Shown: in pieces, positions 3,780-31,781 of the stretch
How the letters are laid out: each line of letters begins with the position of its first letter
Numbering within the stretch: the first letter of the stretch is position 1
Source: Candidatus Odinarchaeota archaeon
GTDB lineage: Archaea; Asgardarchaeota; Odinarchaeia; Odinarchaeales; Odinarchaeaceae
Direction of reading: 5' to 3'
NCBI GenBank assembly: GCA_038826135.1
Contig: JAWBON010000001.1
Coordinates: 1 to 54,811 of the forward strand
Length of the DNA stretch: 54,811 bases
The notes under the pieces: model-generated
Seen by the model: only the letters and a program-made list of their open reading frames with translations
The model's database searches: none
Told to the model about the DNA's origin: nothing
Translations under genes and position numbers: made by a program

Positions 3780-5114
3780 TTAGTAATCGGTTAAAAGCTT
3801 TTGACCGATAACCTTATCTTCTTTTTCCGATTCTTCAACCTGTTTTCTAGCACCTATATTTAATTTACCGTAGACTCCGTCATGACCGGGTGGGTCGAAG
3901 TAGAATTCTCCTTTTCTCACCGAGCATATGTTTAACGCTAACTGTTCGTCAATATATTTTTTAAGTGAAGAGCAGTCTAAGCTTTCATTTAAAAGCAGAT
4001 CATACTCTGACCCGTACACTTCTATAAGCCTTTTATAAACCTCTATTACCTTATTAGACCAAGGTGACGTGATATTATAAGTGTAGGCGATCACTTCCGT
4101 TAACGGGAGAAGATATTTAAACGGCTTAGCTCCCTCGCGTTTAAATCCGAGCGGTCTATCTGAAAGCTTTATAACCCTGCTTAGCACCCCTCTGGTGATC
4201 TTTCTATGACAGATAGGACAGTTTTTAAGCCGCTCTGTAACGGAGGGGTGAGCGTAGAAATCCTCTTTATTTTTATGATGGTCGGGCCGGCACCCGTCAT
4301 AATTGTATTTACCCTCCTCCGGTCGGAATTCAATAGTCATCTTCAACCGTTCGTCATTCGTTCTAAGAGCCTCTATAACCTCCTTATATGATGGTTTTTT
4401 AAGGTTAAATACTGTAGCCTCTCGCCCAAGCCTGTGAGGGTAGAAACTATGCAAATCACTGCATGAAATAATTGAGAAGTTATCAAGCCAGGATATTGAG
4501 TGAATATATGTGGGATCCGCGCTTAACCCTGTTTCCAAGCAGTGTATTTCAGAAAACCTGTCTTTATAACAGTCCTTAATATTATCATAACCGTTAAACG
4601 TGCCTAGTAAACCATACCATGGTGTGAATATATGCGCTGGTATAATTTCAATTAAATCGTCTACCTCTTTAACAATATCTATGAACTCTGGAACCTGGAG
4701 TTTCAAAGTGGGTCTAGCATCACTTTCCAAACTTCCATAGCGTGACAGCGCTTCATTTATCTGTTTAGCGACTTCAAATGTAGGGGCTAAAATAATGTGG
4801 TGGACTCTTTTACCCCCTTCACCTTCATCACCGATTACAGTGTTAACCTCCGCTTGGAGTATGAAATGAACTTTAACATTATCCTTCTTGAAAACATAGA
4901 TCTGGTTTTCCTCATCGAAGGATAATTTATCTTCAAGCTCTGAAAGCCACTTAGGATATGTGAAATCACCGGTGGCGAGTATTGAAACACCTTTCAACCA
5001 AGCGTAATATGATAGTAATTCGATATCAAGGTTTTTAGAACAGCCGCCTGAATATTTACTATGAATATGCAAGTCGGCTATGAAATCTACCATAAAAGGA
5101 TTGAAATGAAACAC
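3780..5114 (-). CDS. endonuclease Q (PHP-domain deaminated-base endonuclease)
   Basis: Same-order matches to the EndoQ family as I remember it: DLHIHSKYS, HHIILAP, PAHIFTPW, LETGLSADP, SDLHSFYPHRLGRE, and a Zn-finger-like CPICHRK. The track start is GTG at 5114; the ATG at 5093 (MVDFIADLHIHS) is the more likely start. Confidence 0.75.
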   Translation of the reverse strand: MFHFNPFMVDFIADLHIHSKYSGGCSKNLDIELLSYYAWLKGVSILATGDFTYPKWLSELEDKLSFDEENQIYVFKKDNVKVHFILQAEVNTVIGDEGEGGKRVHHIILAPTFEVAKQINEALSRYGSLESDARPTLKLQVPEFIDIVKEVDDLIEIIPAHIFTPWYGLLGTFNGYDNIKDCYKDRFSEIHCLETGLSADPTYIHSISWLDNFSIISCSDLHSFYPHRLGREATVFNLKKPSYKEVIEALRTNDERLKMTIEFRPEEGKYNYDGCRPDHHKNKEDFYAHPSVTERLKNCPICHRKITRGVLSRVIKLSDRPLGFKREGAKPFKYLLPLTEVIAYTYNITSPWSNKVIEVYKRLIEVYGSEYDLLLNESLDCSSLKKYIDEQLALNICSVRKGEFYFDPPGHDGVYGKLNIGARKQVEESEKEDKVIGQKLLTDY

Positions 5115-5149
5115 ATTATTAAAACTTTATTATAGCCGGCTTACATTTT

Positions 5150-27848: not shown

Positions 27849-27988
27849 TTTTTAATTTCCGACTCGTTAATTTAAAATTGAATGAAACAGACGAGCCTGA
27901 TTACTATTCTTCGCAAGTGTTAATATATTAAATAATTGGTTATATCACCTACCTTAAATTTATTATTGTATTTTTTTAATATTATATT

Positions 27989-29197
27989 ATGGAATTAAAA
28001 TCGCTGGATGAAAAAACTCTTTTAGAAAGGGCTAAAAAACATATTTTTTCAACAGGTATAGGTGATGCTGCTTCAAGGCTGTGTCGTGAAAATACAGCTT
28101 ACGGGCTTGCTAAAATTCAGCTCGTCCAGGAGGAGTATGGTTTCGAGCCTTCAGCTACATTTATATCAACTCCTGATGAGACCGTCACTAGAAATGTTGA
28201 GAGATGGCAGAATGGTATAGGCTATGGTGGTAAAATTAGTTGGGGTGAAGGCTCTGATAAAATAATTTTCTTAGATGTTAAACCTAATTGTTGTGGAACA
28301 CTTGTAGGAGGGTTAGATGAGTTACCTGAGCCGGCGTATATTATCAAACATCTTTACAAGCTTGAATCGAAGGATTTTATTATTGACGGGATACCTGTTA
28401 AATGGGATTTTAATGTCGGGAACCATTTTATCGATGTTTTTAAAACATCTCCAGGGGCTAGTGTAGATTTACCTGAATATGTTTTTATAATTCATTCATC
28501 AGCCCCTGAGCTTAAAAGTGAAACACCTTTAGGTATGGGGCTGTATTATAGTAAAAGCCCTAGTTTAAGCCGGATTATGAAGACTGTTAAAACAAAATTC
28601 GGGGACGCTAAAATAGTTTTAGACGGTGATGCTGAAGCATATTATGATTTCTACAAGCTCTCTGAGCGTTTCTCCGAGCAGAAGAGGCTGCTGGCTGCTA
28701 AAGAGATATTCGGTGATTTTAAGCTGATCTCTAGTAAGACTCATCAGGGTTTATTAAACTTTAATGAGGCGGTTTTAGGTTGTCATTATTCGGATGATAC
28801 TGGTGGCGTACTGTACCCTGTTACTTTAAGACCTGATTTACCGGCTTATCTTATTGAAGCTAAAAAAAGTTTTTCGAAAAACATGTTAGAAGCCTTAGGA
28901 TTCTTTAATCGAGCTGAAGAGTTGGGTGTTTTAAACAGGCTTCTATCATTCAATTGTGTACCTCACGGGGGTGGATATAGTTTTCCAGACATGGTTACGG
29001 TGAAAGATATTATTAATATTCGTGGTGAAAGATACTTTGTTATGGAGCTTCAAAACGAGTTAGGGTTAAAGATTTTTAACAACCCTGGTGAGTTACAGTT
29101 CATCTACAGGGGGCGTCAGGTGGTTATCAGCTCTGTTGAATTGGAATTAATCGAGTTAAAAGCTAAGCTTATACCGGAATACGTGTTGAAATTATAA
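27989..29197 (+). CDS. divergent RtcB-like protein (putative metal-dependent RNA ligase fold); function unknown
   Basis: 402 aa. Same-order motif matches to RtcB: FLDVKPNCCG (DINCG), NVGNHFIDV (GSGNHFLEV), FIIHSS (HTGSRGLG), YYDFYKLSERFSEQKRLL (YfsamkaAaNfAwaNR), KTHQG (AHN) and CVPHGGG (CHGAGR). Confidence 0.45.
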   Translation: MELKSLDEKTLLERAKKHIFSTGIGDAASRLCRENTAYGLAKIQLVQEEYGFEPSATFISTPDETVTRNVERWQNGIGYGGKISWGEGSDKIIFLDVKPNCCGTLVGGLDELPEPAYIIKHLYKLESKDFIIDGIPVKWDFNVGNHFIDVFKTSPGASVDLPEYVFIIHSSAPELKSETPLGMGLYYSKSPSLSRIMKTVKTKFGDAKIVLDGDAEAYYDFYKLSERFSEQKRLLAAKEIFGDFKLISSKTHQGLLNFNEAVLGCHYSDDTGGVLYPVTLRPDLPAYLIEAKKSFSKNMLEALGFFNRAEELGVLNRLLSFNCVPHGGGYSFPDMVTVKDIINIRGERYFVMELQNELGLKIFNNPGELQFIYRGRQVVISSVELELIELKAKLIPEYVLKL

Positions 29198-29262: not shown

Positions 29263-29673
29263 ATGATGAGTAGCGGTTCTAGTATTGTAAGCGATATAAG
29301 AGATATACCGGGAAGCTCTTTTAAAATCCAAATAGAGAAAAAACCCAGCTCAGCTTTAATCAGAATATTACGCGGTTTGAAGGTGACAAAGGAGATTGAG
29401 ATTGAACGAGGGGAGTTAACCAAGAATCGGGTTGTCACAATCATTCAATCCGAATTATTTATGCCTATCTCTCCTTTCAAAATTATGAAAATTGTTGAAG
29501 AGCTTTTCAAAAATATTGAAGATAAAGAAAAACAGGCCGCCTCCTTGGAATCTCAAGTAACCCCTATGGAAGGTTCTCCACCCACTCCTGAAAAAGAAGT
29601 GGTTAAAGAAGCTGAGCAATCTACTTCGGAGGCCTCTGCTAGCAGCGATGTGAGTGAAAATAAACCCTGTTGA
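29263..29673 (+). CDS. hypothetical protein with acidic Ser/Glu-rich tail
   Basis: 136-aa ORF with a GGTGG SD 4 nt upstream of ATGATG. No family recognised. Confidence 0.45.
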   Translation: MMSSGSSIVSDIRDIPGSSFKIQIEKKPSSALIRILRGLKVTKEIEIERGELTKNRVVTIIQSELFMPISPFKIMKIVEELFKNIEDKEKQAASLESQVTPMEGSPPTPEKEVVKEAEQSTSEASASSDVSENKPC

Positions 29674-31547: not shown

Positions 31548-31781
31548 TTAAGGTCTCTTCCACTGATTATATGCTAGTTGAATATCCCTGCTGGTTACGG
31601 TTTTTCTCTTGGAATGGATTGATAATTCACCTGCTCTTTTAGCTATTTCTAAACCTATTTCCTCAAGTATTTTACCCAGCTCACTAGCAGCTTTCTCAGA
31701 AACTCTTTCAACTTTCGCTTTTCTTATTAACCTATCTAATGGTGCTAACGGTATTATTCTCTCAGCTTTCTCTTTCGGCAT
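31548..31781 (-). CDS. archaeal histone (HMf-type histone fold)
   Basis: 77 aa. IPLAPLDRLIRKAKVERVSEKAASELGKILEEIGLEIAKRAGELSIHSKRKTVTSRDIQLA aligns with HMfA/B. A TATATAAAAG box and an AAGGTGAT SD lie upstream. Confidence 0.9.
   Translation of the reverse strand: MPKEKAERIIPLAPLDRLIRKAKVERVSEKAASELGKILEEIGLEIAKRAGELSIHSKRKTVTSRDIQLAYNQWKRP

Follow-up and report, generated by a model that had tools for sequence, protein, structure and literature searches.

Background

To our knowledge, only one family that joins nucleic acids via histidinyl-GMP at a binuclear metal site of Cys and His residues has been characterised so far, the founding family RtcB. Here we describe a gene of Candidatus Odinarchaeota archaeon (assembly GCA_038826135.1) that encodes a short and highly divergent RtcB-like protein. 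The gene lies at 27989-29197 on the forward strand of a stretch of 54,811 nucleotides (contig JAWBON010000001.1, positions 1 to 54,811), which we call the window throughout. It points to a second, deeply diverged family with hundreds of members, in which the catalytic constellation of RtcB stands on a substrate surface that appears to have been rebuilt.

In RtcB, the metal M1 is bound by Cys98, His234 and His329 and the metal M2 by Asp95, Cys98 and His203, with Cys98 bridging both metals and His404 acting as the nucleophile; Asn202 and Asn330 contact the GTP phosphates, Phe204 is another GTP-contacting residue, and the guanine is read by Glu206 (N1/N2) and Lys480 (O6) (PMC9745838). The strand with the 5'-OH end is bound by Arg190, Gln194, Arg238 and His242, and Asn202 contacts the 5'-OH nucleophile as well. 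Mutation of the residue equivalent to Arg238 in the E. coli enzyme slows the sealing step around 200-fold, and this residue is needed specifically for sealing (PMC8051266).

RtcB enzymes also cap DNA 3'-phosphate ends, and the paralogues vary in their ligation and capping activity; RtcB1-3 of Myxococcus xanthus and the DNA 3'pp5'G capping by E. coli RtcB are precedents for the capping of DNA or RNA ends instead of, or besides, sealing (PMC10630183). Other RtcB paralogues with a specialised task and a partner gene are on record too (e.g. PMC9223846). A further precedent is the E. coli RtcB2-PrfH module, where an extra RtcB copy serves a repair task, namely 16S rRNA repair, together with a linked partner gene. 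As far as we know, these specialised paralogues are true members of PF01139 and have the usual arginines, whereas the family described here is a lineage apart, far more diverged and linked to another partner gene.

A new family within the RtcB superfamily

The listing of open reading frames (ORFs) and the sequence itself bear out the 402-aa ORF that the first-pass annotation of this DNA had proposed. Its ATG is the only possible start, because an in-frame TAA stands four codons upstream. The predicted isoelectric point (pI) of the protein is 5.7. The G+C content of the gene, 0.34-0.38, is the same as that of its surroundings and therefore a recent acquisition is not indicated.

The protein had looked like an ORFan, because single-sequence searches of Pfam, NCBIfam and PDB came back empty. 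Neither Pfam, including the RtcB family PF01139, nor NCBIfam gave a match even at E<=10, and the PDB matches to MTA/SAH nucleosidase (E 0.63) were discarded as chance. This impression holds for these curated libraries only, since at least 869 relatives were found at E<=0.001 in a search of 5.8 billion clustered proteins. None of these relatives carried a precomputed Pfam domain and all the names given to them were "hypothetical protein". Thus Pfam, NCBIfam and genome annotation all overlook the family, and we did not find a description of it in a literature search covering 8.4 million full texts.

An AlphaFold2 model of the window protein, built from an alignment of 40 sequences, had a mean predicted local distance difference test (pLDDT) score of 93.7 and a predicted template modelling (pTM) score of 0.92. 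When this model was compared by Foldseek with 350,542 PDB chains, all 15 significant matches were RtcB (chains of P. horikoshii, human, zebrafish and Thermus, E 8.6e-8 to 1.3e-5, probability 1.00), and the first match after RtcB came at E 0.15. In the viral library BFVD the single significant match was a 370-aa phage RtcB (E 2.2e-9).

Regarding the comparison of profiles, a shallow profile of 40 close sequences (effective sequence number, Neff, 2.7) found RtcB in PDB at E 0.13. Its best PDB match, a segment of a [NiFeSe] hydrogenase (E 0.019), was judged spurious. PF01139 was touched by 8 of these 40 members, with a best E of 0.004. A diverse profile of 128 sequences was made by adding members of 25-45% identity (Neff 6.2), and with it hhalign matched a profile of 22 Asgard RtcBs with a probability of 89.3% and an E of 2.1e-6 over 351 columns, spanning both families from end to end (query 9-402 on RtcB 3-483). 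The HMM-HMM comparison suggested in the first-pass annotation thus gives a significant RtcB match once the diverse profile is used. The score of this alignment was 53.9, against 31.2 +/- 3.2 (maximum 38.1) for 25 block-shuffled RtcB profiles (z ~7), 17.4 for a reversed profile and around 17 for unrelated HD and Endonuclease Q (EndoQ) profiles. As all these controls score far lower, a chance alignment is excluded.

No unrelated known family was confidently matched in the Pfam, NCBIfam, PDB and PADLOC scans. The structure matches are specific to RtcB, and the profile similarity covers the full domain. Nevertheless, all the 40 members scanned fall below the gathering threshold of PF01139 (27 bits), and a search of five carrier genomes with this model detects the canonical RtcBs only and never the short protein. 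This is a new family inside the RtcB superfamily and not an RtcB: it fails the Pfam test, whereas it shares with RtcB (P. horikoshii 1UC2/4DWQ/8DC9, human RTCB) the fold, a full-length profile alignment and five of the six catalytic residues. The distinct, uncharacterised branch of the RtcB fold that had been suspected from the DNA is therefore supported, and homology to RtcB with an intact catalytic core is, in our opinion, very probable.

The catalytic core

Residues of RtcB are numbered here through an Asgard RtcB reference (L003), which was verified against the P. horikoshii chain 1UC2, and conservation counts refer to the 128 family members unless stated otherwise. The positions and counterparts of the motifs are collected in Table 1. 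The RtcB-like motifs quoted in the first-pass annotation are all present, with the residues named there and in the same order as in RtcB, and five of the six RtcB catalytic residues have counterparts on the most conserved columns of the family. All three M1 ligands find an aligned counterpart (C102, H169 and H252), and H326, within an HGxG motif, is by alignment the predicted nucleophile. The counterpart of the M2 ligand His203, H146, is invariant (128/128) and stands between N145 (124/128) and F147 (127/128). Around the nucleophile, P325 is found in 126 members, H326 in 128, G327 in 123, G329 in 126 and Y330 in 103. Four His residues thus stay unchanged in two domains of life exactly where RtcB has its catalytic ones, which argues strongly for a maintained active site.

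The wider sampling also settled two ambiguities left by the single sequence. Between the neighbouring cysteines, C102 is the conserved one, whereas the C101 column is mixed (A63/C20/T18). Likewise, the M1 histidine is H252, whereas the H266 column varies (H44/Y40/Q26). The parallel that had been drawn between the helix AEAYYDFYKLSERFSEQKRLL and the RtcB segment EEYFQAMQCAANFAWANRQ is confirmed by the alignment, in which R233 (125/128) falls on the Arg of the RtcB ANR motif. The Tyr of the AYK motif is kept too, and next to it stands R374, a near-invariant Arg that is specific to the family. Altogether, counterparts of Cys98, His203, His234, His329, His404, the GNHF motif, the ANR Arg, the AYK Tyr and Lys480 are retained. 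For annotation purposes, a member can be recognised as a protein of around 400 aa with PNxCG, GNHF, IH(S/G)S, THQG and PHGGGY in this order.

The substrate surface

The protein is 81 aa shorter than archaeal RtcB, in agreement with the shortfall of about 80 aa noticed at first, and 61 aa of this difference are a single deletion between the Cys motif and GNHF, where the family has 44 residues and RtcB 105. Length alone does not distinguish the family, because short RtcBs exist, such as the 370-aa phage RtcB mentioned above. The N-terminal PDxHxGxG motif, which the first-pass annotation had considered lacking, turned out to be remodelled and not absent: in the hhalign mapping P62-D63 and G76..Y79-G80-G81 align to the PD and the GYGFPIGG of RtcB, and R72 (115/128) stands at the position of His67, after an insert of seven residues.

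The residues that hold the 5'-OH strand in RtcB have changed. Arg190 is replaced by D133 (D/N/E in the column), Gln194 by V137 (I/V/L) and His242 by S177, and the RtcB residue is not conserved in any of these columns. Arg238 corresponds to P173, in a column with P48/S28/R9/K8 where R or K occurs in 17 of the 128 members, and the adjacent E174 is present in 105. The two arginines that follow the nucleophile in RtcB, Arg408 and Arg412, are represented by Y330 and D334 (D/E), respectively. Furthermore, the family is acidic, with a median pI of 6.3 compared with 8.65 for the Asgard RtcBs. It has instead near-invariant residues of its own, namely D26, R72, W73, W85, D140, E174 and R374.

Catalytic residues are thus kept and strand-binding residues lost, and therefore the metal and nucleotide chemistry looks conserved, whereas the substrate surface has been rebuilt. 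The suspicion that the substrate is different is supported by the lost 5'-OH-strand residues, by the coexisting canonical RtcB and by a partner of the family's own, both described below. In this sense the family is a natural experiment on which parts of RtcB set the chemistry and which ones set the choice of substrate.

Distribution of the family

The closest relative in the clustered-protein search is 79% identical to the window protein, and another one at 78% is named Candidatus Odinarchaeum. An identity of around 50% is held in Bathyarchaeia, Loki-, Hel- and Hodarchaeia, Methanocellales, Nitrososphaeria and Woese- and Nanoarchaeota. An exhaustive HMMER scan of 1.8 billion representatives gave 260 clusters at 50% identity. 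Among its best 150 matches, nearly all the full-length proteins have 340-450 aa and no RtcB of canonical length (~480 aa) was found. In the species-representative genomes of GTDB, 235 stretches encode a relative. Many bacterial metagenome-assembled genomes (MAGs) from anoxic habitats carry one, belonging to Spirochaetota, Planctomycetota, Clostridia, Chloroflexota, Atribacterota, Desulfobacterota, Actinomycetota and Bipolaricaulota. The short form, whose phylogenetic spread had been proposed as a check, is therefore found in Asgard archaea, Bathyarchaeia, DPANN and methanogens and in at least ten bacterial phyla, many of them anaerobic.

A maximum-likelihood tree of 81 sequences separated a bacterial clade (38 sequences) from an archaeal clade (43 sequences) with a support of 100/99. 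Its subclades mostly track taxonomy, and the window protein clusters with two Odinarchaeial sequences (100/100). The few "bacterial" labels inside the archaeal clade are probably binning errors; for example, L041 is nearly identical to the Bathyarchaeial L042. The clean split of the tree speaks against rampant horizontal transfer, as could be read from the flat cross-domain identity of 47-55%.

Within the phylum of the window, the short gene occurs in 39 of 121 sampled genomes (29 of the 52 of high quality), compared with 41 of 41 for canonical RtcB; the short gene is accessory there. Canonical RtcB was also present in the five diverse carrier genomes tested. Since it stands alongside in all the genomes checked, the short family is added to RtcB and does not replace it.

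In the genome of the window itself, the canonical RtcB is located on another contig and is interrupted by an insert of the size of an intein. It is a single open frame of 995 aa (G000, contig C16:2586-5357, forward strand, loci L001/L002) with the Pfam match split into model positions 1-50 and 49-426, and the insert of around 470 aa, probably an intein, comes right after the PDxHxGxG region. The same split pattern was seen in G035, G026 and G003.

Some genomes of the phylum carry more than one form of the short gene. Four genomes of family f21 (G061, G101, G106 and G118) have two or three RtcB-like copies each, one at ~520-540 bits and the others at ~200 bits, and in several further Asgard genomes the sole form is a distant one that scores ~120-150 bits and has an open frame of 420-485 aa. 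Copies and versions at such different bit scores mean that the family has internal subfamilies. In G053 (C6:9407-10619, forward strand, in the same order as the window) the match is divided into two adjoining pieces in different frames, covering residues 4-115 and 113-402, with an orthologue of the HD partner described in the next section 2 kb downstream. This suggests a frameshift or an assembly error.

Genomic neighbourhood and partner genes

We surveyed the neighbourhood of 80 loci of the family. In 32 of them a stand-alone HD protein (~217 aa, PF01966) directly adjoins the RtcB-like gene on the same strand. In DPANN, Clostridia and Helarchaeota the HD gene precedes the RtcB-like gene, and in Spirochaetota, Desulfobacterota, Chloroflexota and Planctomycetota it follows it; the adjacency thus occurs with either gene order and on both sides of the bacterial/archaeal split. 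The profile of this partner matches B. subtilis YpgQ (5DQV, E 6e-24) and E. coli YedJ (3GW7, E 2e-20), and the H...HD...H...D metal motif is kept, with invariant H32, H67-D68, H80, H112 and D130/D132. YpgQ hydrolyses (d)NTPs in a Mn-dependent manner, with a preference for dGTP and dATP (PMC8177086), and the title of the original study, as it appears in the reference list of that article, calls it a nucleotide pyrophosphohydrolase. These YpgQ/YedJ-type HD phosphohydrolases are kin of the HD partner, not of the window protein.

Compared with the generic HD paralogues (~60-150 bits), the partner forms a subgroup of its own (at least 177 bits) that is tied to the RtcB-like gene. In the phylum of the window, all the 10 genomes with an HD orthologue of this top tier carry the RtcB-like gene, and in 5 of the 10 the two genes lie within ~2.5 kb. 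Kinship among these genomes inflates any formal statistics, yet the trend itself is plain.

The second linked gene encodes EndoQ. In one clade of Clostridia/Aerophobetes the genes for HD, RtcB-like protein and EndoQ form an operon with gaps of 2-4 nt, and the identity of the last one is given by an E of 1e-63 to P. furiosus EndoQ.

Two arrangements were less frequent. A ~455-aa ATP-grasp-like protein (PF14397, E 4.5e-5, below threshold) is encoded directly downstream in a Helarchaeota MAG and a Bipolaricaulia MAG (L040:7252-8631 and L108:4431-5786, both forward), and the order in the Helarchaeota MAG is HD, RtcB-like, ATP-grasp-like. With two loci this cluster (c67) was too sparse to be taken as a partner, and it is unrelated to the EndoQ cluster (c22). 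In Pirellulales and Sedimentisphaerales a DksA/TraR-type zinc-finger gene runs up to or into the start of the RtcB-like gene (L073:3961-4530, L090:854-1333 and L106:5460-5960, forward strand). A TetR gene lies further upstream there, together with genes that we take to be deoxyhypusine-synthase-like and pyruvoyl arginine-decarboxylase-like. This looks like lineage-specific synteny.

Proposed function and alternatives

We propose, from the aligned residues, that the product of the gene is catalytically competent and belongs to a family of the RtcB superfamily that had not been annotated before. Two transition-metal ions would be bound through C102, H146, H169 and H252 in the manner of RtcB. By analogy with that enzyme, H326 would attack GTP or another NTP at the alpha-phosphate and become covalently linked to the nucleoside monophosphate (H326-NMP), and the NMP would then be passed to a terminal phosphate. 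The acceptor would most likely be phosphate-terminated DNA or RNA ends, which would be capped or sealed in a context of repair. In many lineages the adjacent YpgQ-like HD enzyme might, as a speculation, remove a pyrophosphate-linked NMP cap or supply or clear nucleotides, whereas in the genus of the window the enzyme would work without this partner.

The covalent nucleotidylation of His326 appears fairly probable to us. Our best explanation overall, and one towards which we lean slightly, is an enzyme that works through a nucleotidylated His and caps or seals the ends of nucleic acids, whereas the more specific proposal of a nucleic-acid end as the acceptor, in a function distinct from that of canonical RtcB, is quite possible although we would not yet call it probable. 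A housekeeping tRNA-splicing ligase does not fit, because the family does not conserve the residues with which RtcB holds the polynucleotide, a stretch of 61 aa is deleted, the protein is acidic and a canonical RtcB coexists with it. End capping or sealing is favoured because the 5'-OH-strand residues are lost, RtcB provides a precedent for capping, and the partners are a pyrophosphohydrolase and a repair endonuclease. The family thus points to an uncharacterised repair or end-modification activity whose companions are a guanine-nucleotide pyrophosphohydrolase and, in a single clade, EndoQ.

Several observations weigh against this proposal. The TM-scores to RtcB are moderate (0.41-0.48, and 0.41-0.55 across the structure matches), so that, as far as the model tells, the two structures are clearly related yet far apart. 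The hhalign probability is 89% and does not exceed 95%, and the profile of 40 sequences gave only a weak signal against RtcB (P=0.02). The Asp95 column aligns to K98 (K/R/M). As for D96, which had been proposed as the counterpart of Asp95, the residue is indeed present and is the nearest acidic one, but it stands two positions upstream beside an alignment gap and the column has D or E in only 95 of the 128 members; the invariant D26, D63 and D140 could be substitutes for the M2 carboxylate. The position of Glu206 (D149) is mostly D in the core of 40 sequences (at least 90%) and varies in the wider family (D49/N26/E15/G10), and therefore the nucleotide may not necessarily be GTP. Regarding the context, the HD protein is adjacent in only 40% of the loci, and the EndoQ linkage, being limited to one bacterial clade, is effectively one evolutionary event. 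Both come from organisms other than that of the window, where the neighbours of the gene are unrelated housekeeping genes. In the genus of the window no match to the HD partner was found at E<=1e-15 in four genomes, one of them a single contig, and the genome of the window has only generic HD proteins (~35 bits), so the HD partner model is inapplicable to this organism. Finally, the window does encode an EndoQ homologue, with an E of 1e-102 in an hmmsearch with the profile of the EndoQ genes adjacent to RtcB-like genes; however, it is unlinked and lies ~23 kb away.

An ordinary, although divergent, RtcB would be a GTP/Mn-dependent 3'-phosphate/5'-OH RNA ligase isozyme for a particular RNA target. 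The invariant active-site His residues, the Cys in 123 of the 128 members, the full-length alignment with RtcB and the retention of the 5'-OH-contacting Asn202 as N145 (PMC8051266) would all be expected of such an isozyme, and the specialised paralogues with partner genes, RtcB2 with PrfH among them, are its precedents. The same alignment argues in the other direction, since the counterparts of Arg190, Gln194, Arg238, Arg408 and Arg412 are not conserved and a mutated Arg238 equivalent slows sealing so strongly. The deletion lies beside the active-site motifs, the pI is acidic, none of the 40 members scanned reaches the Pfam RtcB threshold, and the partner is an HD protein of the nucleotide pyrophosphohydrolase type instead of archease, RtcA or PrfH. 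We therefore consider this alternative rather unlikely, although it is the most probable of the three. The loss of polynucleotide-binding arginines and the acidic pI would equally suit His-NMP chemistry on an acceptor that is not a nucleic acid, either a protein or a phosphate-bearing small molecule such as a nucleotide 3'-phosphate or a cofactor, with the YpgQ-like HD enzyme acting on the nucleotide product or substrate. The closest characterised relative of the HD partner uses free (d)NTPs (PMC8177086), the weak ATP-grasp-like gene follows at two loci, and the neighbours in the window are metabolic and transport genes. Nevertheless, no metabolic operon is conserved across lineages, the only other recurrent, tightly linked gene is that of the DNA-repair enzyme EndoQ, and the near-invariant R72, R233 and R374 could bind nucleic-acid phosphates. 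We know of no RtcB-fold enzyme that acts on small molecules, and we regard such an acceptor as quite unlikely.

The remaining alternative is that the protein is not catalytic at all, but a pseudoenzyme with a binding or regulatory role on the RtcB fold, or that its resemblance to RtcB is convergent or spurious. The empty single-sequence searches of Pfam, NCBIfam and PDB, the moderate TM-scores and the uncertain counterpart of Asp95 would be in line with it. This is very improbable given that the four His residues and the Cys are maintained at the RtcB catalytic positions in bacteria and archaea, that the structure matches RtcB exclusively and that the shuffled, reversed and unrelated controls exclude chance.

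Returning to the nucleotidylation of nucleic-acid ends, a bolder version would join the RtcB-like and HD proteins in a reversible module for end protection and repair. GMP or another NMP would go from His326 onto a DNA or RNA 3'-phosphate (or 5'-phosphate), giving a pyrophosphate-linked cap and not a phosphodiester, and the HD pyrophosphohydrolase would take the cap off again. We consider this version unlikely. If it were true, the RtcB fold would have its first dedicated capping/decapping pair, one with a substrate-binding surface of its own and a wide occurrence in anaerobic sediment archaea (Asgard among them) and in bacteria.

Expression signals and other features of the window

Reading the sequence upstream of the ATG confirmed the T/A-rich region and the missing Shine-Dalgarno sequence that had been noticed before: no such sequence was found there, and hardly anything but A and T occurs in the 40 nt that precede the start codon. 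In the three Odinarchaeial orthologues a box TTAAnTTTATTA occurs at -35..-24, at the same distance and with no indels. The 18 nt before the ATG are also free of indels in the three of them, and the sequence further upstream diverges. The box is thus plausibly an archaeal TATA box placed so that transcription would begin on the ATG or beside it and leave the mRNA leaderless, and in this Odinarchaeial genus the gene is probably expressed as a monocistronic leaderless mRNA. A sigma-70 promoter scan was set aside, as it is not applicable to an archaeon.

Table 1. Features of the RtcB-like gene and of the window, with positions in the window. Counts are out of the 128 family members.
Feature	Position	Strand	Remarks
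EndoQ homologue	3783-5126	-	
TATA-box-like element TTAAATTTATTA, -35..-24 from ATG	27954..27965	+	Candidate archaeal promoter
A/T-only stretch, 18 nt directly 5' of ATG	27971..27988	+	Last 11 nt AATATTATATT invariant in three orthologues
In-frame TAA	27977-27979	+	Four codons 5' of ATG
Gene for short RtcB-like protein, stop codon included	27989..29197	+	ORF listing, sequence, homologues, AlphaFold2 model, RtcB matches
TPDET, residues 61-65	28169..28183	+	Remodelled counterpart of RtcB PDxH; D63 aligns to P. horikoshii Asp65, 120/128
PNCCG, residues 99-103	28283..28297	+	C102 aligns to RtcB Cys98 (L003 C100); C102 123/128, G103 124/128
GNHFID, residues 144-149	28418..28435	+	N145/H146/F147/D149 align to RtcB Asn202/His203/Phe204/Glu206
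IIHSSAPE, residues 167-174	28487..28510	+	H169 aligns to RtcB His234 (M1 ligand), 128/128
THQG, residues 251-254	28739..28750	+	H252/Q253 align to RtcB His329 (M1 ligand)/Asn330; H252 128/128, Q253 95/128
PHGGGY, residues 325-330	28961..28978	+	H326 aligns to RtcB His404 (nucleophile); Y330 in place of Arg408
YRGR, residues 373-376	29105..29116	+	Y373 aligns to Tyr of RtcB AYK motif, Y104/F12; R374 118/128
K401, penultimate residue	29189..29191	+	RtcB Lys480 counterpart; K90/R15, invariant in the 40-sequence core
136-aa ORF	29263-29673	+	65 nt downstream of the RtcB-like gene, same strand; Ser/Glu/Pro-rich acidic tail
77-aa ORF	31548-31781	-	

The neighbours of the gene in the window encode a VIT1-family transporter, a TrmB regulator, an OMP-decarboxylase-family protein, an EamA transporter, an aminotransferase and a 136-aa ORF, and this arrangement is conserved only within Odinarchaeia. 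A reading of the locus as a defence island was dropped, as the PADLOC defence-system models gave no match for the window protein or for the ORF downstream, the gene is among housekeeping genes and the synteny is kept across the genus. The 136-aa ORF has no Pfam or NCBIfam match either. A counterpart of 125 aa occupies the same position in two other Odinarchaeial genomes and none was seen beside the family elsewhere; it may be co-transcribed with the RtcB-like gene. Further downstream, the product of the 77-aa ORF on the reverse strand is presumably an archaeal histone-fold-like protein, judging by its sequence.

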